Source: Sarea resinae (taxonomy: Eukaryota). Taken from it: a DNA stretch of 64,000 bases. The notes under the pieces are model-generated. The model made no database searches. It was not told where the DNA came from and saw nothing but the letters and a program-made list of their open reading frames with translations. Below are positions 127-13,160 of the stretch, in pieces. Position 1 is the stretch's first letter, and each line of letters opens with the position of its first letter. The stretch lies in assembly GCA_026026165.1 (NCBI GenBank), contig JAPEUD010000043.1, positions 1 to 64,000 on the forward strand. Reading direction: 5' to 3'. The position numbers and the translations under genes were made by a program.

Positions 127-2758
127 AATTTGTAAATCCTAGGAAGACTTAGAGGTTATAATAGGTCTTAGAGGCTAGCCACTCTTTTATAGTGTCTACC
201 TAGCTCTTCTCTATTGCGATACTATTAGTCCTAATAATAAATCCTAAGAAATTAACTTTCTACACTTTAAAGATATATTTTAAGGGCTTTATATATAGGC
301 TATAGGTTGATAGCTGTTTAAGGACCTAGTGTATATACTTCTTATACTTATTAGGTGAATTAGAGTATATAAGAATGTTATCTAGATAGATAACACAGCA
401 GATATTAACTAGGCCTTATAATATATAATTAATATAGCTCTAAAATGTAGCAAGTGTATTAGCTAATCTAAAGAGCATAACCTTATATTTAAACTAGTTG
501 TAATAAGTGCAGAACGCTGTCTTATACTTATCGCCTTTATAGATCCTTATATAGTAGTAGGTATCCTTTAGGTCTAGTTTTAAAAAAACTTTAGCACTGC
601 TTATTTAGTCTATAAGCTTAGAAATAAGAGGTAATAGGTATTAATTCTTAATAGTAACCTTATTTAACGCTTAGTAGTTAATATAAAGTTATAAGCTACT
701 ATTCTTTTTAGGCACAAATAAGATTAGCGCACTAATAGAGCTTATAAAGAGAGTGATCTACCTCTTTACTAAGCTGTTATCTAGGTAGGTCTGTAGAATA
801 CCTAATTCTTTCTAGGATAATAGATATATAAGACTATAGAGAGAGTCTTTACTCTCTAACTTAATAGTATAGTTAGCTAGACTATGCTTAGAAAGTTAGC
901 TAGCTTTCTCTTTACTAAAGATAGAAGCAAATTCTTTATACTATTTAGGTATCTTATTACTAGCGCTAACCTAGTAAAGCTTTACTACCTCTATAGGTTT
1001 AGGCACTACTATAATCTCTTAGTAGTTTAGCTAACGTTTTTTCTAATGTTCTTTACTAAGCCTAGGCTTATCTATAGGCTTAATATAGCTAAATTTACCT
1101 TCTAACTAATATATATTATAGTAGTATAAGAATAGCTATAGATACCTAAGTAAGAATAGAGGACTATTAAAGTTATAGGTAAAGAACTAGCACTACACTA
1201 TCTTCTTTATACTATTACTATTAGCAACTTGTATTTCTAATTAGTATTAGCTGTAAATCACTACTTATAAGCTATTTACTATTACTACACTAGGTAGCTG
1301 CCTAAGCTTAGCCTTAGAGATCCTATACTCTTTAATCTATAATTATAAAACTAGAGAAGCTTCTACTCTTAAATTAATTAAGGTAGTGCTATTTGCTGTA
1401 CTACTAGAGGTGTAAATAGTTAGCAATGTCTCTAATCTTAGAGTTAGAGCTCTTTAAGATTCTTCTACACTAAGATAGTAAATAGTGTAGGGTTCTAGCT
1501 CTAGTTATAAAGCTAGTGTAGGCCTATTATTGCGTTTATTCTTATAAGTAGAAGTAAAGTAGCTCTCTTAGCTATAGTTTAGACAAAGGTTACCTTCTTA
1601 CCTATAGTAATACTCTTTATTAAAGAGCTATTAAGGCTACTATATAGTCTTATTACCTTTATTATTTTTAGGCTAAGCAGAAGTTTTTTATTCTTATAGA
1701 GGTAGGCTTTTACCCTTATATTTAGTAGGATTAAACTTTTATTTAGTTCCTTATTTATTCTAGCTCTTTTCTTTCTCTACACTATTACTATGCTATTGCT
1801 TATTATCTAGCTTAGATAGATTAGGGTTCTTATTCTTATTCTTTTTATTGCTTATATAAAGGAGTTTCTCTACCTAATTTGCTAACACTATAGCAGCGCT
1901 CTACTTTTATAGTATAGGTAGAGTTTAAAGCAGTTCCTAGTAAATTTCACTTTAGATCTTAGTATAGAATAAGTTGTATTGCTGCTTTTTAAGAATGTCT
2001 TATCTTTCTAGCACTTCTAGTTTAATCTGTTCTAAGAAAGCTGTAAAGCTATTAATACTCTAGTGCAGCGCCTGTGTAGCGTTATAGTATAGCTATAATA
2101 TTAAACTACTTTAATTTACTAGATCTTCTACTTAGTCTAGTAAGAATAAGATAAATTTATCCTAGGTATAGATATCTTTCTTAGTAGATTCTTTAACCTA
2201 GTGCTATACTAGCGCTAGTTTGTCTTTTAAGTACTATATAGTATATAGCACCTTTGCTATATTATTACTTTTATCTATAATAGTACTTAGTTAGAACGCT
2301 ATCTTATAGGATTAGATAAATTTATTATACTCTTTAATTATCTTACTTATAAATAGCTTTAGAGCTTAGATTTTAGTCTAGTTAGTAATATAAGGTGCTA
2401 GTATAGCAGCTATAAGGCTTTATCCTAGCTATAATACTTATATAAGTGCTTATAGTTATTATTCTATATAGAACTAAGCTATCTCTCTTTAAAGTTAATA
2501 ATATTAAGCTTACTACTCTTTAGCGTTATACTCTTACTATATTTAGTCTAGTAATTAATTAGTAATCTAGTTAGAGATAGGCTTTTTAACTTTACTTTCT
2601 ACTTAGCTTACTACTATCTTACTATTATCTCTATTAGCTTCTTTACTTAGTAGAGTATTAAGAGCCTTTATAGTATTATATATATTTATTATTACTATCT
2701 TACTTAGTCTACTACTATATTAGTAGAGCGTTTAGAATTATTAGACTACTTTCTAAAC
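127..2758 (-). mobile_element. Ty3/Gypsy LTR retrotransposon relic, gag-pol body, truncated by the telomere at the end of RT
   Basis: Minus-strand translation gives gag LYYNATQALH*SINSFTAFLEQ (~2090-2025); zinc knuckle CLNYS*ESYFTSTY = CLNCGQEGHFASTC (1585-1544); protease TLINLRVEASLV = ALIDSGAEASLV (~1385-1350), in frame with the knuckle; RT KGDKYKTAFCTYYN*FKYKVMLFRLANTLATF*SYIN and VIYLDNILIYS (YLDD motif), then L*VFLGFTNF ending at the telomere. Confidence 0.93.
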
Positions 2759-3299
2759 TAGGCTATCTACTTAGGTTTAGGTACTTAGCCTAAATTAAGG
2801 TTTAGGCGGGTTAGCCTGCCTGATTACATAATCAGGTTAGGTTTAGGCAGGCTTAATTAGCTGTAGGGCCTACAGCCTACCTATTAGGTATATACAGGTT
2901 GATTAATAAGATAAAGAGTAGATTAATAAGATAAGATTATTAAAAGGTAATATATAGAGGTAATATCTAGAGAGTAAATGCGATAAAACTATAGGAATTG
3001 TAGAATAAGAATAATAGTATAATAATACACTCTATATGTTTAGTTTATAGTGCCCTACATAATCTACACTATATAAAAACTACTAAATCATCCTCTAAAC
3101 CTTTATAATGTAGTATGTTTTACTAGAACTAATTCTACTCTAACAGAGATAAATATATGCTGTAGCATATACAAAGCAAACTACTACAAGTGTAACTATT
3201 CACGCAATTAAGAAGGAAATAGACTAGTTCTAGAAGAGAGCCTCTATGCCTTTAACCTAACAAATAAATTATCTACAGTTAAACGCAGGCGCTTTCTTT

Positions 3300-6023
3300 A
3301 AGACAATATAGATTAAGCGTTATTATACCTAGAGCGTTAAAGCAAAGACTGCTGCTATAAAGCAGGTTTATCTAGCTGCACTATAGGTAGAGGTAGAAGT
3401 AGTAAAGAGTGCTTATCACTAGAAAACCTATACAGGTCTGTGTTATCCTATATCGCAGGCCTACTATTAATTAAGGTTGGCTTATTATTATCACTAATAA
3501 CAAGTAAATAATCATTAAATTCAGCTGATAGCGTGTGTTAATAATTAGTGTCCTTAGAAATACTGTTAGATTTATCTTTACCTATATAGAAGCAGAGTTT
3601 ATCGCGATTAAAGTGCTTTACAACTATAGTGTTCTAAACTGTTTCTGCTAAAAAGCGACTTTAACAAAAGGTAATAAGGTCTTATACCTTATTAAAAGTC
3701 TGTTTAACACTAACAGCAGCTCTAGGTATAGTAAGAATGTCTTTTACTATTTGTTTAAGCAAGGGCTAGTAGTGTGATCGCTAGAACTAGTAGAATGTCA
3801 GCACCTACACATAGAAATGTTACCTAAAAGTGTTACCTGCAAAGGATCCTTATAATCTATAGCTGGCGAAGATAGATACTAACTAACTAGATCTGTAATA
3901 AAGCGATGTTGTTTCTAAAGCGTCTTAGCCTATGCAAGTGAATTAACATCTAATGCTGATATAGAGAGTGCAGCAACATCTAAGGAGGTAACTTTAGTTC
4001 TTACATAATGCAACTAATAATAGTCCTTAAATTCGCGCTAGTACTTTCGCAAATATTTATAGCCCTAGTTATTAGACTTCTTAGCTATTAGCAAAACATT
4101 CCTAGAGGATAAGGTAAAGGTAACAGATTTAGGTAACATACTTTATATAGATTAAGCCTTGTTAAGGGATTAAGGATGCATGCTAAATTAAACATTCTCC
4201 TCTGTACTCCTTTAGTATCTTAGTAGTACTTAGAGAGCTTAGTCTTTGCTGCTTCTATAGCAGAAGTAAGCTCTTGTTTCTAAGGTGTCTGCTTAAGCCG
4301 TATCTTGTTTAGATGCTTCTCTAAGTGCTTAAAAATCTGAGAGTATACAAACTAGGTCTTGTAGATAGTTACGCCTTTAGTCTAAGACACAGCTCTTGTC
4401 TAATCATTAAATAGCTTTAGTAAGACAATTAGATAGCGAATATAGTCCTAACTAGTAGGAGAGACACGAGTTCTGCGTATAGCAGGACTAGTTTCGCTAA
4501 TAAGAAACATCTAAAGGGCATCTCGCAGCTGCTAGGCCTGCTTCAGCATATTATATATTAAGTTCTATTGAGTTTTAACATCTTAGATTATATTAACTAG
4601 CGTTAGCTGCAGATTACAAAAGCGTGTAGTTTGCTGTAATAAAGCAGCAATATAGATAGCAAGTGCATAAATCTAGAAACTTTAGAGGTAGTAATAGACA
4701 AGGGTTGTTAGCACTTACCTTTTACAACGTGCTGCTAAAAGAGTCTTTAGAAGGAAGCTGCTAAAGCAGCTCTTAGTCTGTATCTAACTAGGTATCTTAT
4801 ATAGACTTGTTTAAAGCAGTAATTTTTAGGCACTTATTAAAAGCCACGACTGCAAGCTGAATGACATACATAAGGCAAGGCACACAAGCAACCTTATAAT
4901 CCTATACAATCTAATAGTGATTAGCAAGTAGACTTATTAGCTCTTAACGCATTGTGTTGTTATTACCTGCGTTATCTGTTGTCACAGCTAGTATACAATC
5001 CTACAATGTAATGTTACCTAAAAGCGTTACTATAAACATTAAAGACAAACCTAAATGTTAAAACACTAAAGTCGATTAAGTAGTAACGTAGCTATGTTAC
5101 AACTAGAGTGCTCTCTAGTTATCTTTTTAAACCCTAGGAGGACTTCCTAGTAATTCTAGTCTTTGTTAATAAAATACCCTATTATAGAAAGAAAGGATAT
5201 CTTATTTAGACTTTGCTATACATCTAGTGCGATAGAAATTTTGGTTTCTAGGCCTAGTCTCTATAGGATCCTTAGTAAGATCTCTGTATATCGATTATAA
5301 ATGTTATTATAAACCTATTATCGCCTTAGAATTCAAAGGCCTAGCTAGTAAAGAAGGAAGCATTGTTTAAACTAGTGGTTTTCTATAATCTGCTATAGAA
5401 GATTTGCTAATAGAATTATCTTAAGGAGAAGGCGTTACTAGCTTAACTAAGAGAATAGCTCTAAGGTTTAGAGAGTCTTTAGTGCTAAAGCATGTTGCTA
5501 GCATTAAGGATAGAGGTATTAGTTAAGAGATCTATTACATATAGCGATATCTTACTATAGTCTAAAGAGCCTTAAGTGTGTGTATTGTGCCTGCTATAAG
5601 AGACTAAGCACACTCTAGAGAGCTATAGTGCTGTTTTATTGCAGAAGTGCCTGTCCTCTTAAGACTAGAATGCTCTTACTAACGTCTGTATTATTAACAC
5701 ATTACCTCTAGGCAGCTAGTTGCAACATTAGCAACCTAGTAGAAGAGAGACTAGGTTGTGCTTTTCCGCGTCCTAGAATCCTATTAAGGGCTTCTATATT
5801 AACCTATATCTGTATAAGCAGTCTGCTACCACTAGAAGATAAAAGTATTATGATATAATTGCTGCTAAATAACTATTCGCTGTGTAGGATCTCTTTGTAA
5901 CACCTCTAGAACATAGTGAATCAAAGCTAAAGTAATAGTTATAGGTTTAGACTTAATAGCTGTAGACCTTTATGTACTATCCCTAAGTTCCTTATAGTCT
6001 AATGTTTCAAACGAATTAGACAT
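3300..6023 (-). pseudogene. hAT transposase, RIP-inactivated, several introns; 3' end approximate
   Basis: ATG at 6023 (acaATGt). N-terminal SLFY*VANVATSCLEVMC; ANLL*QIIENH*F; ISIALDV*QSLNKISFLSIIGYFINKD (first catalytic Asp region, ~5240-5160); I*DVKTQ*NLIYNML = QDVKTRWNSTYDML (~4590-4545); dimerization domain KDILTIPRAAVSVKQTFNKV*DLITFC*SRFLAETV (~3750-3640). Confidence 0.92.
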
Positions 6024-6349
6024 TGTAAAGGAGAAATTTATAGCGATAAGAAAGTGCAGAAGGCCTTAGAACATATAGCAGAGTAAAGAGGTAGGAAGTG
6101 CCCTTAACTAGAGAAGTATTTGCTTAAATGTTGATATTAAAGGTTGCTAGGTTTAGCATAACTAAACAAACACAGCAAAGAGACTATAAAGAGAGTAATA
6201 CAATACAGCTATCTACTAGAGTTATTAGGAGAGAGTTTATACAGCTAAAATTTAATTAAGAGAATGTGCATTCCTAACGTGATTAATATACACAATGTTA
6301 CTAGTAAGTGTTACCTTTTTAGTAAACTAAATTCTAGAGAAAAAGTGAA

Positions 6350-8300
6350 AATCCACCCCTAGGCAGACATAGACTAATAAAGAAAAGCCACTTAGCTATA
6401 ACTGCCTCTCTACTTATCGCTATCCCTAGCAGCACTAGAACTAGAGTCCTTCTCTTTAGCATTATTAGTAGAGTTATCCTCACTCTCCTCTATATTAATA
6501 GGAACATTCTTAGCTGTTGTTAGTAGAGCCTCCTCTATAGCAGATCTAGCAATAGCAGGGTCCTCTCCTTTAGGAATATCCTCTAGCTAAGTTTTCTCTC
6601 CTATAGTTAGCAGCACAAAGTCTTCCTTATCACTTAAGATTAGGTTAATATCCTTATCAGATAATAGAAACACTTCTGCTTCTAAATTGCTAAACCTAGT
6701 AAAATTAGTCCTAGCCTCTGTATCACTATTAGAGAGGGTTGCACAGTCTTTAACCTGCTCTACAAACTCTAACATTACCTCCTTTAGATTAAGATCACTA
6801 GCTTCTACTAGATTATTATAGCTATAGCGGTAGATATCTCTCTTATAGCAGCAGACTACTTTTAGCAAGCGACTTCTAATGCGTTTGCCCTATGCTCTAA
6901 ATAACAAGTCAGGCTTATCTAAATTTTGTCCTTGCTAAACTAATTAGATAAATGCTGCAAAGAAACGTTACCTAAAAGTGTTACCTTAGGATCGGCACCA
7001 CTATTAGGTTAGCTATCTCTATTGTCTTTAAGTAGCAAGATATTAACAACATCCTTAACTATCTACTTGTTATCCTTAGCCTTTGCTTTCTCTGCCTTAA
7101 TAGCCTTTTACTGCTGTATAGTAACCTACTTAGCAGACTAGTAGAGGAAAAAGCGTCGTTCTATTAATTTGTCTATTTTAGGGTCTATAACAGTCTCTTT
7201 AAAGTCTTATCGTTGTGCTGTTATTATACTAGCGTAATTATTCTCGCGACAGAGTTTGCCTCTTAAGGTGGATTTTGCTTTCCTATCTACTCTATCTGCT
7301 TTTTTTAGTGTCTTCTTAAACTTAGTATCGCTGAGTTTACTATCTAGCTCTAACTCTAATGCTTTAGACTTTGCTTCCTTAAGCTACGCTCTAGCAATCT
7401 GTTGTTGTTTGCTGTAGAGAACTATCCTAAGCCTTATCTTACTAGTATAATGTCTTTGTAGGCAGGCTTTTACACGTTCTACTAGGCTAGCTATCTCTAG
7501 GTCAAATGTTCTCTTAGGATAAGAGGAAGTTGTAGGGGTTGCACTATAAGTTGCACTAATATTAGTCACTAGCAAACAATATTACCTAAATGTGTTACCT
7601 TAGACATCTCTTCCTAAGAGTAGAAGAGTCTAAGCTCTCTAGCTTATTATTAAGGTTAATCTCCTTCTGCTTCTGTCCTTTAGATATAGTCCTATTACTT
7701 TATTAGCTTTGTGTTTAGAAGTGTTACTAGGATATGTTACTACTTCTACTTCTTATAAGCCTTTCCTACTTTGTCTAAAAACTTTGCTTTTCTAACCTTG
7801 TCTAAGAAATTTGCTTTTGTCTTCTTAACAACAAAGACTATCTTAACTTTATTGCTGCTGTTATCACTAGAGTAGCACTATCAGCAGATATCTACAGAAT
7901 GTGTTACCTAAATGCGTTACCTAGCCTTACTATCTGTCTTCTTATTACTACTTCTTTTCTAACTGCTGCTACTATACAGAGAATTGTTTATAACTCTATC
8001 CTTAAGATCTATAGGCAGTTAGTTATTGTCTTTATATTCTTCTATATCTAGACTTAGCGCAGTTGTGCTAGATTTAGCTTTCTTAAGCTTTTGCTGTTTC
8101 CTAAACTAATGTAAGCCTTTTGTAGTACTATTATTACCTTAATGTGTTACCCTTAGCTCTAAGCTGCTAGTAGGCTATGATTTCTAGGAAGAAGTAAGTT
8201 TCACCTTACTTTTATCTCACTTAGAAGTCTAGAACTCACCTCTTCTTTATAATAACAGTTTTCTCTATAGCTGCCTTATTTTAAGAGAAGCTTGTAGGAG
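6350..8300 (-). pseudogene. Unidentified multi-exon cargo gene relic inside the hAT element
   Basis: Coding-like minus-strand frames broken by TAA/TAG, e.g. KETVIDPKIDKLIERRFFLY and RIRSRLLKVVCCYKRDIYRY, including ORFs 6587-6868 and 7384-7575. Intron-like segments end in ttgcag/gctag/ctgtag. No family recognised; boundaries approximate. Confidence 0.5.
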
Positions 8301-8391
8301 ATGTAAGTGATTTAGAGAGTAATTAGCTAGCTATCTTATCACTTTCTACTGCCTAAACAGTTAGAGAGTTAATAGGATTAATGAAATTAAT

Positions 8392-8848
8392 GAAATCTTA
8401 ATAATGTTAATAACAGAAGTAATAAAATTAGAGAGAAAGAGCAACCCTCCTACTATAAGAGAAGGTTGCTAATAATGTAGGTAGTAAGGTTAAATTACGT
8501 GGTGGATTTAGGCACGCAAGATTTAGGCAGAAGGTACGTACCTTATTAAACAGTTAATAACATTCACTGCAAGGTACATACCTTATTAAACAGTTAATAA
8601 CATTCACTGCAAGGTACATACCTTATTAACTAGCTAATAACACTAACTAAGGTATATACCTTGCAGTAAATATTTACCTTAATATTATATAGGTCTACTA
8701 CTTAATTTAACCTTACTACCTATATTATTAGCAACCTTCTCCTATAGCAAGAGGATTGCTCTCTCTTATTAACTTTGTCACTTCTATTATTAAACTAATA
8801 AGACTTAATAAACTTTATCACTTCTGTTATTAGTATTATTAAGATTTC
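8392..8848. repeat. Inverted repeat (arms ~8392-8509 and ~8691-8848) enclosing a 40-bp tandem repeat (8531-~8670)
   Basis: gagcaaccctcctactataagagaaggttgctaataatgtaggtagtaaggttaaatt is mirrored at 8691-8766, and 8392-8430 is mirrored at 8808-8848. The centre has two near-identical copies of aaggtacRtaccttattaaacagttaataacattcactgc plus a degenerate third. Confidence 0.9.
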
Positions 8849-9128
8849 TCTCTTAGTGCTCTTTAAGTTTTAAGGTTAAGGTGAGTTTTAGAACTACTAC
8901 TTAATAGTAACACATTTAGGTAACATTTAAGACTGCAAAGGCACTCAGCTAATTATTCCTAACTACAGACAACTCTCTAGATTCTTTCTTTAATACTAAC
9001 TAAAGATTCTCCTTTAGCACTCTCTACACTACACTCTTACTCTCTTAACATAATTATAGTCACTAATACAGTAAGTTATTCTTTCCTACCTCTACTAGTA
9101 ACACTTAATAGTAACATTTTACTAGACA

Positions 9129-9861
9129 ATAGCTTGTACTAAGCGTACTACCTGCAAGACTGTCCCTAGTACTAGTAGGAAAGGAAAAGGAAAAGGTAAG
9201 GGAATATCTGCTGCTAAGGCTTATTGTGTTACTAGTAGCAAATCCCTACGCAAGAACTTAGCTAGTATAGCAGCATGCAAAGGTTGTCTTGCTACTAGAC
9301 AACGCTTCACTACTAGCACATATGCTAAACGCTAAAAGGCCTACAAAGATGCTATAAAAGCATAGGTTTATAAGGATACTGCCTTTTATAGTTGTAGTAA
9401 GGTTTATAGTGTGCCTAAACTAATCTAACTCTGTTGCACTTGTCTAGGCAGTAAGTCTTAGTCTCTAAACTCTAAGGGTAACACATTATAGTAACATTTA
9501 AACACTATAGCATCTGCACTCTATAAAATCAAGAGATTGCAAAAATCTATTAATTTAGTCATTCTAAAGCTCTCTTTCTAGCGCCTAGTCTGCAAGGTTA
9601 TATCTTATCACTGCTACCTCCTTAGAGAGCTCTGTTTTTAGTTATTAGCTATATATGCCTTGCAAGAAGCCACTAAGGCTTTTATAGTTAGGTTCTTTAA
9701 AAGTGAGTTTTTCTATCTCTTCTTCTATTCTATACTTAATTTTTCTAGATGTGCTTTAGGCCTGCATTTATTAGAACTGTGTGACTATTAATTACAAAGA
9801 CACTTAGTTTATTAAGGCTTTAATAAAGGGCTTTAGTATCTAGATCTCTAGTGACACATAG
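9129..9861 (+). pseudogene. Histone H3-like variant gene, RIP-inactivated, carried by the hAT element
   Basis: Exon 1 (9129-9450) IACTKRTTCK...TSSKSLRKNLASIAACKGCLATR...CCTCLG = MARTKRTARK...TGGKSPRKNLASxAARKGRPATG...RRTRPG. Intron 9451-9510. Exon 2 TSALYKIKRLQKSINLVILKLSF*RLVCKV...LCF*LLAIYALQEATKAFIVRFFK matches H3 [28 protein letters not shown]...LRFQSSAVMALQEA. Intron 9703-9748. Exon 3 ACIY*NCVTINYKDT*F matches AIHAKRVTIMPKDIQL. 3' end approximate. Confidence 0.9.
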
Positions 9862-9909
9862 GTTAAGTTTCTATAGCATTAGCTCTAAGGTTTTACTAGT
9901 CCTAGTAGC

Positions 9910-9957
9910 GCAATTAGGGATGCAATTAGGGATGCAGTTAGGGATACAATTAGGGCT
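9910..9957 (+). repeat. 12-bp minisatellite (GCAATTAGGGAT) x4
   Basis: Units gcaattagggat, gcaattagggat, gcagttagggat, acaattagggct downstream of the H3-like gene. Confidence 0.85.
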
Positions 9958-10307
9958 TCTCTAGTCTTCTAGTCACAGGTCATAGGAAGTTATAAGAGGC
10001 TTATAGTTTTTCTCTGCCTTTTAGCATTTTTAGTCTTTACTTTACTTAGTCTACAATAAAGACTTAATAGACTTAGTAACATATATAGGTAATATTTGTA
10101 GAGTAATAGCGGCTTTTTAATGCTCTGTAAAACATGCCCTACAATCTATGCTATTTTAGCTACTATCTTTATGTCATGTGATAGGTACCTACACCTACCT
10201 ACTAGGTCTTATCAGGTAGGTTGATTAGGGCATAGGTACTTAATACCTATACCTAGGCAGGTTCTTCTACCTCTACCTACCTAGTAGGTACCTAAGTAGA
10301 CACTCTA

Positions 10308-10960
10308 TTCTAAACTTCTAGCTATAGTAGAGTAGGTAAGAATAGTATAATTAAATAGGCTAGTGTATTATAGCATGCTATTATTACTCTAGCAATATAG
10401 AACTAATACTATAGATATAGATATTACTAGTAGGCACTAACTTTATAATTGCACTAAATACTAGCTCTAATAGCTAGCGCCTCTATTAATCTATATAACT
10501 AATAACCTTACTTAGCTTACCTAAACATTACTAAACTACACTAGGTAGTTACTTTATACTACACTAAGCTATATATAGCATAACTATTAGTAGTAGCTCT
10601 TATAATAAAATAAGAAATATAAGCGATTAGAGAGAAAATAAAACAAGAAATATAAGTAAAAAACTTATAGAATTAGCTTCTTTACACTTATACTAGTGTA
10701 TCTTATTACTTATAACAAATAATTATATAATAATGTAATAGATCTTTAGAGTTATTAAATTATAATAGAACTTATTATAAAATTATCTCTATATAATATG
10801 TGGTTATAGAGTTATTATAGTTAGAAAACCCTAACTAACTATAAAAACTTCTAATTCTAACCTATATCCTATGTATATTATTGTCTTAGGCAGGCTATTA
10901 AATAGATAAGGTATTAAAACAAGGAGATAGTTATATTAGATAGTTAAACTTATAGTAACA
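10308..10960 (-). mobile_element. Probable 5' part of the Gypsy element (gag start, leader, possible LTR ~10734-10960)
   Basis: Continues the host sequence beyond the right TSD and is as heavily mutated as 127-2758. A TG...CA bounded segment (TGTAATA at 10734, GTAACA ending 10960) lies near the RIP boundary. No partner LTR is available to confirm it. Confidence 0.5.
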
Positions 10961-11379
10961 CAGATAAAGCAATTGTATCTGATAACTCTATAGATAATTA
11001 GAATGCATGATTGAAAAATCCGTACTCTTTATAGAATCTAACCTATTTATAGGGTTCTTTAGGCCTATATATCGCCGGCTATCTCGTCAAAAATGGGTTG
11101 CTAGTGCAGAGCATCATTCTCGTGGTCGTTATCATCATTGTATCAGCTGTATCGTCAAAAATAATATCCTTTGCCCATGCGACGACGCTCATAATATTCG
11201 CTTTTATCATATGGCTCAATGCAACTCCTCCCCTCTTCCACTCTGAGCCGAATCGAGCATTTCCTCCCTCTCCGGCCATACCATCTCTCCTATCCGTTCA
11301 TGATTCATCATTCGGATATGCAGAGTTCGATGAGAGTCACCGAGTGACTTAACGACCGCGCTTTAAATCCGCCGAACCC

Positions 11380-13160
11380 TCACAACGAATCAGCCGACCA
11401 CTTACCCTTGGCTCGAATCCGTCTTCCGTAGATATAAAAGAGGAACGGAATCGGGATCATTGCCGCAGCGAAAAAGCCCAGAACGCTCGAGGCCCATCCG
11501 ATGCCCATATGATGAAACATGGGAGTAGCGAAGAGAGGGAAGACGCCACCCAAGATGCTCCTTAAGAAGGTATTGGCAGCGATGGCACTTGCTGCGTATC
11601 TCAGGAAGACGTCGACGAGGTAGTTGAGCGCAGCTTGGAAGATTGTCGTGAAGCCTAAGCCCATACAAGCCGCTCCAATGCAGCTTGCTATCCATGGGAT
11701 ATCTTTGTCCGAGGTCCAGCCGAAGATAAATAGGCCACCACTGAAAAATACGGAGCCGATCATCATTGGTGGTAAGCGTGCTTCAGGGACAGGACGGCCG
11801 TTGTTCGCTTTCAATCGGCTAATGTAGAAGCCTTGGTTCAAGATGTTGACCACCGCGCCGAAGAGGATGCCACTGCCGAGAAAATGGTCAGATTGATGGA
11901 TTCGGGCGAATTTGGGGGGGGGGGGCTTACATTAATAGAGCCAGAAATGGAAGAGAGCCAACAAGCGGATTCCAGCCACGATGTTCCTGAAATACTATAG
12001 GAAATGAGGCCAGGTTCAGGTAAACGATACCATAAACGAATGAGGCATACAGGGCGACTAGGAAACAGATAGGAGTCAAGAGCATCTGAAACGGCCTGAC
12101 CAGGTATTTGGTTGCGAGCTCTCTGAGACTGACATCCCATTCTTCGTGTCTGGCATGGAGAGCCCAGTTGCCGGATTCATGGCGGAGTCGACGAGCTTTG
12201 TAGACCAGGAGTACTGGTGGATAGCTCTCATCCAGAATCAGGACGTCGAGAATCAATATGAAGAACATCCAGATTGCCGTCAGCTAAGCAAATAAGCAAA
12301 TGCACCAAGGATGACAGCCTTCACGTACGTATTCGGTCCACCTCCACCGCAGATAGCTTTGCACTACGGCGCCTCCAATGATGGGCCCCAGACACGGTCC
12401 AACGACGACGGCTAATGCGTAAAAGACAATGGCAACGCCACGTTGCTCTGGCGCCCAGATGTCACCCATCACACCACCTGTATTGGTGACCGGCGCAGAG
12501 GCGAATAGGCCCGCAAAAAAGCGAGTCAACAACACCGTCTGAATATCCTTGGCCGTCGCGGTGCCGATGGAGAAGACGGCGCCGATAAAGTATGGCGTCA
12601 AGACGGCCGGTTTCCGCCCATAGACCTCAGAAAGTGGCGCCCAGAGGAGCGTGCCAAGTCCGAATCCAAAGAGGAGGAACGTCAGACCCAATGTGGAAAC
12701 CTCCTGCCCAACATGGAAATGATCAGATATTTGCGGAATGCCTGGCGAGTAGCTACTCTCGGTCAGCGGGGATGAATTGTCATTGAGATGGGTCATACAT
12801 TGCACTGGCCAATGTCGCCCCCATGGTGGTCATCCCATACAACGCCGTCGTAATGCACTTCTTCCCAAGGGACCAATTTAGCGGATGATAAAGATCATCC
12901 TTGCCGTCAAAGTCAACAATGGCATCTCCACCGGTCTTGCTGCGCGTCAACGGGTGTGTGAACCGGCGCGGCACATCAGGCCTGCTTCTCAAGCGAGAGA
13001 GCACAGATGATGTCGTCCGTTTATTGATGGCCCTGCCCGTACTGCTGGCGGTATCGGATTTTTCGAGGTCGTGGTCTTTGCTGTTGTCGGTTTCGCTGCT
13101 TGGATCAAGGGCCGGTGGCGACCTAATCTTGCCCTCGGTTTGTGCTGAAGATTCGGCCAT
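11380..13160 (-). CDS. MFS DHA1-family multidrug/polyamine transporter (spliced)
   Basis: Starts MAESSAQ. Motifs VDFDGKDDLYHPLNWSLGKK, WAPLSEVYGRKP, LTRFFAGLFASAP, DESYPPVLL, PEARLPPM and YAASAIAANTFLRS; about three GT-AG introns. Confidence 0.93.

Follow-up and report, generated by a model that had tools for sequence, protein, structure and literature searches.

The question raised by this locus is what a short and precisely spaced direct repeat is doing, many times over, inside a single transposable element. The locus was studied in the first 64,000 nucleotides of contig JAPEUD010000043.1 of the Sarea resinae assembly GCA_026026165.1, a stretch of DNA that was analysed as a whole and that we will call the window. 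Near its beginning lies a hAT-type DNA transposon of 7,549 bp (2759..10307), delimited by a target-site duplication (TSD) and terminal inverted repeats (TIRs) and degraded through repeat-induced point mutation (RIP). According to frame models, a transposase gene, a central open reading frame (ORF) and a histone H3-like gene are all found between this one pair of TIRs. A pattern scan of both strands gave 14 exact matches to RGTAAY-N7-RGTAAY in the window, all of them within 2946-10093. We tentatively interpret this motif, giving the interpretation a little less than an even chance, as an array of double-stranded DNA sites for a sequence-specific protein linked to the element, sites that would be housed in small introns wherever the DNA is coding. 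The observation is solid, the mechanism is a proposal, and the copy of the element present in the window is dead through RIP.

Eight motif copies are on the minus strand (starting at 3819, 5013, 6297, 6967, 7581, 7723, 7903, and 8133) and six on the plus strand (2946, 4119, 8906, 9097, 9477, and 10075). A preliminary description of this DNA had reported 13 copies, all of which were confirmed, and had missed the RIP-worn fourteenth at 2946; its plus-strand coordinates were right, whereas its minus-strand starts were 2 nt too low, the trailing AT having been counted. The number expected by chance is 0.09 for the whole window (100 dinucleotide shuffles) and 0.072 for the AT-rich element alone, where the maximum was 2 and none of 1,000 dinucleotide shuffles reached 14. 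The other 56 kb of the window, with about 53 kb of host sequence and 3,375 nt of RIP-type sequence outside the element, contain not one copy. Thus, within the window, the earlier statement that no copy was seen beyond the TIRs was borne out, and in these 56 kb the motif is not equally frequent in host or unrelated RIPed DNA.

The 13-bp period proposed before was found to be equally strict. Among the same-strand pairs of half-sites up to 40 nt apart, 14 have a spacing of 13 nt, and there are 0 or 1 at any other spacing. Solitary half-sites are almost nil, 14 of the 15 exact GGTAAC sequences of the element being members of pairs. Every site consists of exactly two units, and successive sites are separated by 142-1,284 bp, with about one site per 550 bp over the element. 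The alignment of the copies revealed a conserved block of about 24 nt that includes the spacer (wGGTAACAC-wTTTA-GGTAACATTt); similarity between copies ends with this block, and the flanks are unrelated. When a unit has A at position 1, this letter is preceded by T in 9 of 9 cases, and when it has T at position 6, this letter is followed by A in 5 of 5. Both variants are RIP products of GGTAAC, and therefore the motif before RIP was GGTAACA-N6-GGTAACA. In full, the ancestral form was GGTAACAC-WTTTA-GGTAACATT, two tandem units of 13 bp. A comparison with Rfam 15 gave no match at the motif copies; there was a single sub-threshold match in the central palindrome (27 bits versus a gathering score of 120).

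The distribution of the copies was compared with gene models obtained by three-frame reading and spliced frame models, so that the introns are deduced from reading frames, not from RNA. Eight copies fall in eight of the ten introns that interrupt coding sequence (CDS) in these models (489 nt), and there is none in the 4,433 nt of exons, in line with the original impression that the motif resides mostly in introns. The rest of the non-coding DNA amounts to 2,627 nt and holds the remaining six, four in leader or central regions and two in subterminal regions.

In the transposase gene, the minus-strand copy at 3819..3837 contributes its first unit as the donor of a 50-nt intron (3787-3836), located between residues ..DPLQ and FWRSH.., which we take to be a conserved hAT block. 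This intron has a GCTGAC branch-like site 3' of the motif, and the exon that follows it gives a weak match to Dimer_Tnp_hAT. The plus-strand copy at 4119..4137 is antisense within an intron of 40/41 nt (4101-4141) that has a GTATGT donor, the frame being off by 1 nt in this degraded copy. The minus-strand copy at 5013..5031, which had been regarded as a donor together with that at 3819, lies instead within the 3' half of an intron of 50 nt (5001-5050) that has a donor of its own, GTTTGT. There is also a minus-strand copy (6297..6315) in the spacer or leader between the stop of the central ORF (6410-6412) and the transposase ATG (6023), where the status as an intron is uncertain.

The central ORF shows the most regular arrangement, with four minus-strand copies whose first units are the donors of its four introns: intron 1 (7867-7920, 54 nt; copy 7903..7921), intron 2 (7692-7740, 49 nt; copy 7723..7741), intron 3 (7556 or 7544 to 7598, 43 or 55 nt; copy 7581..7599), and intron 4 (6935-6984, 50 nt; copy 6967..6985). 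In all four, letters 2-3 of the first unit form the donor GT (..AG|GTAACAC..); further 3' there is a branch-like site of the CTRAY type, the consensus of branch sites. In the leader of the central ORF, a minus-strand copy at 8133..8151 could belong to an intron of the 5' untranslated region (UTR), and the same holds for its mirror partner on the plus strand, 8906..8924, in the leader of the H3-like gene, which follows a GTGAGT at about 8881. The H3-like gene has two further plus-strand copies. Just before the degraded start codon, a leader intron of 55 nt (9071-9125; GTAAGT..CTAG) contains one of them (9097..9115) at its positions 27-45, and the other (9477..9495) occupies positions 27-45 of H3-like intron 2 (9451-9510, 60 nt, phase 1, before ..SALYKIKRLQKS); these two introns are 75% alike over 51 nt.

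The two subterminal copies are both on the plus strand. The left one (2946..2964), 187 bp from the end, is fully RIP-worn, with GGTAAT twice, and is antisense to the transposase; the right one (10075..10093), 214 bp from the end, is downstream of the H3-like gene. Only these 2 of the 14 copies come within 250 bp of an element end; for the other 12, the distance to either end exceeds 850 bp. Introns 5001-5050, 9071-9125, and 9451-9510 begin with a separate donor and have the motif 20-27 nt inside, and two introns lack the motif, 4673-4718 in the transposase and 9703-9748 in the H3-like gene.

Several copies had been described as preceding an acceptor. Those at 6967, 7581, and 7903 (formerly 7901) are donors in the frame models, as is that at 7723, whereas at 9097 and 9477, where a separate donor is kept, a unit does lie 10-15 nt before the acceptor. 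This proximity was finally dropped as evidence, because a YAG within 15 nt downstream, seen at 11 of the 14 copies, is not above the background of RIP DNA (0.57 per site, P = 0.08). As for orientation, the rule that it follows transcription except at 4119 stands for that antisense copy, and a second exception has to be added, since the copy at 2946, too, runs antisense to its neighbouring transposase gene.

A related H3-like gene has provided a further view of the motif. The metagenome contigs of the Joint Genome Institute (JGI) were scanned once with a 20-nt form of the motif, yielding 14 loci. Twelve of these, single matches on ORF-dense, prokaryote-like contigs, were ascribed to chance; when 596 Gb of bacterial and archaeal genomes were scanned as a control, 9 single matches came up. 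The only demonstrable relative among the 14 loci is L013, a RIP-like contig of 1,365 bp that encodes an H3-like protein. Compared with exon 2 of the H3-like gene in the window, it shows 35% identity over 97 amino acids with tblastn and 24/65 identities (37%, E 3e-9) with BLASTP, figures in which the divergence between the two proteins is inflated by RIP.

The two H3-like genes share the place and the phase (1) of one intron, before ..AL.KI...QK. In L013, this intron has 112 nt, versus 60 nt in the window, and contains its own GTAAGT donor and a TCTAAC branch-like site. It also holds GGTAACGCATTTAGGTAACG, on the strand opposite to the gene, whereas the corresponding copy in the window (9477) is sense. 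A second shared intron, after ..FFK (H3-like intron 3), is free of the motif in the window and in L013 alike. L013 has another motif copy at 1316-1334, sense and downstream of the gene like the one at 10075 in the window, which falls outside the search pattern. The same sequence, spacer and 13-nt period are found in the H3-like gene of this distant relative, and the presence of the motif both in the orthologous intron and downstream of the gene fits the long co-evolution of motif and cargo that had been suggested at the outset.

An intact JGI protein of 136 amino acids (P0005) is 68% identical to the L013 exon and 35% identical to the window exon. Its N-terminus, VLPKCVTLDNTLLSNT (VLPKCVTL), corresponds to the read-through of an L013-type intron. 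Reading through L013 in the same frame gives LPKCVTFNNTLLSNT (LPKCVTF), where LPKCVT is encoded by the inverted motif. An inverted copy is therefore probably present in an un-RIPed relative too, to judge from the peptide.

Upstream of its H3-like fold and in the same frame, L013 encodes (22-486) two tandem repeats of about 30 amino acids (..ISKV.KACN.PY..SD.ETEIGRQR..) with a run of Asn between them. This N-terminal region gave no Pfam match and no usable ESM Atlas match, and it is absent from the H3-like gene of the window; it could be a DNA-binding region, for which it is a candidate. A further contig of the scan, L005, is RIP-like and has no ORF of at least 100 amino acids. At 1722-2175, two inverted dual motifs about 270 bp apart form part of a longer inverted repeat in which CCGTAAC abounds, and there are additional single GGTAACRC sequences at 115-232. 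No protein similarity between L005 and the element of the window was detected; L005 could be the end of another transposon using the same site.

The arrangement described above would be explained by a protein that recognizes double-stranded DNA. The same intron carries the motif in opposite orientations in the window and in L013, which argues for a site read in the DNA duplex, as do the inverted copy at 4119 and the copies outside genes in both subterminal regions. Two copies of the window, 4119 and 2946, are antisense, which also speaks for such a site. The density of the motif in gene bodies (8 in 4.9 kb) is similar to that in other non-coding DNA (6 in 2.6 kb), suggesting that sites are wanted all along the element. 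Neutral descent is unlikely, because the block, the spacer and the period have remained nearly letter-perfect while the intron and the protein have diverged.

According to this proposal, the motif would belong to one lineage of three-gene hAT transposons, in which an H3-like gene and an orphan central ORF accompany the transposase. The putative binder that we favour would be encoded by the element itself, namely the central ORF product, the long N-terminal tail of the H3-like protein or the N-terminus of the transposase, a host factor being the alternative. Its likely role would be to mark or control the chromatin or the expression of the element, e.g., by self-recognition and anti-silencing in the manner of the plant protein VANC, or by targeting of the H3-like histone. 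The formation of a transposition complex would be less likely, because the copies are spread over the whole body of the element instead of being at its ends. Within coding DNA, a site of this kind would persist only if it is spliced out, and the start of the unit, G|GTAAC, may act as a weak 5' splice site. Since it may itself serve as a donor, the tiny introns of 43-60 nt could have been built around the motif.

Several observations speak against such a DNA site. Searches in Pfam and ESM Atlas found no DNA-binding domain in the central ORF or in the H3-like tail. Per nucleotide, CDS introns (8 copies in 489 nt) have 7 times as many copies as the rest of the non-coding DNA (6 in 2,627 nt), with a hand-calculated binomial probability of about 5e-4 that is partly circular, five intron starts having been set at the motif. 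In addition, 11 of the 12 intron and leader copies are sense (hand-calculated binomial probability of about 0.006), and the first unit is a splice donor in five or six copies, which a role in RNA would explain no less naturally. It was the motif that led to L013, and relatives lacking it would have escaped notice. Six consensus sequences of H3-carrying hATs from the Mycosphaerellaceae (about 45 kb in the supplement of PMC6710886) are without the dual motif, although words split between lines of that file could escape. Finally, the sites of the window are fixed pairs of two units, whereas the targets of VANC, as described in PMC5735166, form expanding tandem arrays.

The strand bias and the use of units as donors would be accounted for if the motif acted in RNA during splicing, the main rival reading, which we consider rather unlikely. 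The GGUAAC units would then provide a weak 5' splice site and, 13 nt further on, a second U1-like or branch-like site. This could favour the recognition of short introns, generate frame-shifting donors 13 nt apart that limit the element's own expression, or serve as a site for an RNA-binding protein of the element. The sense orientation of all but one of the intron and leader copies and the presence of the motif in 8 of the 10 CDS introns are what would be expected. The donor GT comes from the first unit at 3819, 6967, 7581, 7723, and 7903, leaving spliced frames that are open except for stops of the RIP type, and in the introns of 5013, 9097, and 9477 a unit lies 10-15 nt before the acceptor, at the place of a branch site, with no better CTRAY seen there. 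Against this, the orthologous intron of L013 combines an inverted motif with a canonical donor and a branch-like site of its own. The copy at 4119 is also inverted in its transposase intron, and those at 2946 and 10075 are outside any gene body. The element introns 4673-4718 and 9703-9748 do without the motif, and the downstream YAG is at background level. Moreover, GTAACA lacks the G that fungal donors have at position +5, so that the motif does not look tuned to splicing; it is the introns that look as if built to fit it.

The motif could also be the trace of a short donor-carrying module that spread within the element, in an introner-like manner or by intron duplication, and that now has no function. 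This we regard as improbable. Five introns of 43-55 nt open with the same 24 nt, the introns of 9097 and 9477 resemble each other with the motif at the same offset, and the motif occurs in introns in both orientations, in which introners, families of similar short introns whose repeated unit carries the splice signals, can be spliced. Nevertheless, introners are similar along their whole length and spread through host genes. Here, the likeness is confined to the 24-nt block between unrelated flanks, it concerns one transposon only, six copies are outside CDS introns, and no copy was found in the approximately 53 kb of host genes and DNA, so that the spread into host genes that characterizes introners was not observed. 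Besides, the block is near letter-perfect in a relative whose H3-like protein is only 35-37% identical and whose intron differs in sequence and in length.

Even less credit, in our opinion, is deserved by a site used by the transposase for transposition. hAT elements such as Ac/Ds have short subterminal repeats that bind the transposase and lie within a few hundred bp of both ends, and the sites considered here would be equivalent to them, only scattered internally. There is in fact one copy about 190-215 bp inside each end, the sequence AGGTA is common to the unit and to the AGGTAC repeats of the termini and the centre, and L005 has its two inverted copies in what may be a transposon end. Yet what is shared with Ac/Ds is membership of the hAT superfamily, the 12 copies more than 850 bp from either end being internal, unlike those repeats. 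The subterminal copies have the same absolute orientation instead of being mirror-symmetric, and the termini own a distinct repeat, AGGTAC. A kinship of the TIRs with the motif through the shared 7-mer TTAGGTA was also considered and rejected, because this word is not enriched (1.3 per kb in the element versus 1.5 per kb in other RIP DNA).

The AGGTAC repeat is restricted to the termini and the central region of the element, where 10 of 10 GGTAC sequences are AGGTAC (8531-8674, 2779, and 10183-10288). In the centre, between the divergent genes, it forms four AAGGTAYRTACCTT palindromes in 40-nt tandem units, and at the right end it forms TAGGTACCTA palindromes. It is a second and distinct candidate binding site, which for the binding of a transposase or at a bidirectional promoter would be more natural than the dual motif.

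The double-stranded DNA site that we prefer has to be placed among the systems already described. The type of element is known. A hAT that carries an H3-like gene, H3L, has been published in Pyrenophora tritici-repentis with its three-gene architecture (PMC3538342), and going by that published description the window element has the same architecture (transposase, central ORF, and H3-like gene). The Pyrenophora element, as reported there, is about 5.6 kb, un-RIPed and present in nearly identical copies, with expressed sequence tags that contain introns, whereas that of the window is 7.5 kb and RIP-dead. The main text of PMC3538342, to which the search was confined, has no mention of GGTAAC or GTTACC, of a motif, of a direct repeat, of a binding site or of subterminal sequences.

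In six species of Mycosphaerellaceae, PMC6710886 describes hATs that carry an H3-like sequence, have TIRs of about 18-20 bp and are flanked by a TSD of 8 bp; they occur in hundreds of copies and are RIP-inactivated in AT-rich blocks. According to the same source, they measure about 9.5 kb and their H3-like copies, one or two in number, are retrocopies without introns, whereas the H3-like gene of the window has introns. In the consensus sequences of its supplement, GTAACAC is found 0 times, GTGTTAC, GTAACGC, and GCGTTAC once each, and GGTAAC and GTTACC four times each; its main text has 0 mentions of a motif, a binding site, subterminal sequences or GGTAAC. Likewise, a description of the motif was not found in the literature on transposons and introns of fungi, among the matches listed and judging by titles and the beginning of abstracts. 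Thus, the element type is already known, and no description of the motif was found in the literature searched.

The likeness to the VANDAL/VANC system proposed in the preliminary description holds for the layout, i.e., a motif confined to the element and situated in its non-coding DNA, and fails for the dense, expanding tandem arrays. In Arabidopsis, according to PMC5735166, the target of VANC21 in VANDAL21 is a 9-bp motif that occupies upstream regions as well as introns, most of its copies pointing the same way; binding was proven there by chromatin immunoprecipitation sequencing and electrophoretic mobility shift assays, together with an effect on DNA methylation. What VANDAL21, as presented in that article, has in common with the window element is a short family-specific motif in non-coding parts, including the element's own introns, that is rare elsewhere; the origin of the VANDAL21 motif by tandem duplication can also be listed among the likenesses. 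On the other hand, VANDAL21 is a plant Mutator-like element with dense arrays, whereas the window element is a hAT of a fungus whose two-unit sites stand isolated, about 550 bp from one another. No VANC homologue was detected in the window element, and several of its motif copies double as splice donors, unlike the VANC targets of that source.

H3-like genes in fungal hATs have so far been read as accidental captures ('transduplication'). An H3-like gene with private introns at conserved positions and a conserved cis motif looks instead like an old, integrated part of the element. Comparison of the sequences suggests that the three genes and the motif make up one long-lived functional unit, because the intron motif is kept across relatives of about 35% identity and the same motif fills the introns of the other two genes. 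Should a protein of the element dock at the motif, this site would offer a testable entry point to the self-recognition of transposons and their resistance to silencing, and to the purpose of a histone borne by a transposon. If it is a splicing device, this would be an unusual transposon that uses non-consensus GTAACA donors throughout. The most specific version of the idea, which we hold to be doubtful, is a complete self-recognition system in which the element would combine its own H3 variant, an orphan partner and a tag of 2 x 13 bp repeated about every 550 bp, with mini-introns to house this tag. Were it true, the element would build or protect its own chromatin as a fungal counterpart of the plant VANC anti-silencing, and its introns would have been created to carry protein-binding sites.

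With regard to the element itself, it is flanked by identical 8-bp TSDs, TTCTAAAC, at 2751..2758 and 10308..10315. Its left TIR (2759..2775, plus strand) and its right TIR (10291..10307, minus strand), of 17 bp each, agree in 14 of their 17 positions; transitions account for two of the three mismatches. The RIP indices of the element are 1.87 for TpA/ApT and 0.71 for (CpA+TpG)/(ApC+GpT), versus 0.63 and 1.27 for host DNA; for the RIP block as a whole, the ranges are 1.87-1.98 and 0.32-0.71.

A chromosome end marks the beginning of the window, where 21 CCCTAA telomere repeats occupy 1-126; the GC content is 30-38% up to about 11 kb and about 52% in the host DNA that follows. The hAT element is 2.6 kb from the chromosome end and nested in another RIP-degraded repeat (127-2758 and 10316-11050). 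Contigs of a DNA sequencing run (X1), perhaps of the source sample, contain this surrounding repeat without the insertion, linking about 2744-2752 to about 10310-10315, which represents the flank without the element. At a likeness of at least 80%, X1 yielded 3,041 contig pieces whose differences are almost exclusively transitions, and therefore the family appears to be multi-copy and RIPed. Runs X2 and X3 had next to no pieces resembling the element. Among the 40 listed of the 662 places variable in X1, none is within a motif copy, a result that is uninformative, as only about 1.4 would be expected.

Structural variants of the family were also seen in X1. In the central ORF, 27 nt (9 codons) are inserted after 6559, in one version that is less RIPed and another that is more so; an 88-nt deletion (window 7519-7606) takes out intron 3 of the central ORF with its motif and the exon edges; and another variant affects window 7757-7901. 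One contig joins 8928 to 9091, between neighbouring motif copies, but has no more than 24 nt on one side of the joint.

The hAT transposase pseudogene (3538..6023, minus strand) comprises about 765 codons, with 57 in-frame stops, all TAA or TAG, and one frame break of 1 nt at 5330. Its last exon matches Pfam Dimer_Tnp_hAT weakly (E 0.018, 15.2 bits with a cutoff of 21.4, profile positions 31-78), and scans of the whole frame against Pfam gave no match. Blocks such as ..TTDNAGNN.., recognised by eye, are presumably those of a hAT transposase. No word-sharing relatives of the transposase fragment were found in the protein search.

The orphan central ORF (6410..8111, minus strand) has about 500 codons in 5 exons and ends at the stop 6410-6412; its start codon was not identified. 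The spliced model of 501 codons contains 14 stops, all TAA or TAG, i.e., of RIP types, compared with 50 and 99 in the other two frames. No domain was found in its exons with Pfam. The last exon (6413-6775) is unusually well preserved, with 2 stops in 174 codons. It has one relative among 1.84 billion representatives, a hypothetical protein of 121 amino acids with 85% identity (KAI9832628.1), which is labelled by its source as belonging to a Sarea resinae metagenome-assembled genome. This match points to the Sareomycetes as the likely taxonomic neighbourhood, outside the Dothideomycetes where H3-carrying hATs were reported.

The H3-like gene (9129..9843, plus strand, 3' end approximate) has 3 exons, is RIP-degraded and was recognized by Pfam and by its identity with L013 and P0005; its match to Pfam Histone (E 1.8e-4, 22.2 bits) is under the cutoff of 26.4. 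This gene and the central ORF diverge from a central inverted repeat (8407..8793) whose arms (8407-8506 and 8694-8793) are 84% complementary and enclose three 40-nt tandem units (8531-8650) with the AAGGTAYRTACCTT palindromes. Just past the RIP block, at 11906-11919, there is a run of about 13 G in an apparent minus-strand host gene for a membrane transporter; the run is possibly a homopolymer within an intron, or else an artefact of the assembly.

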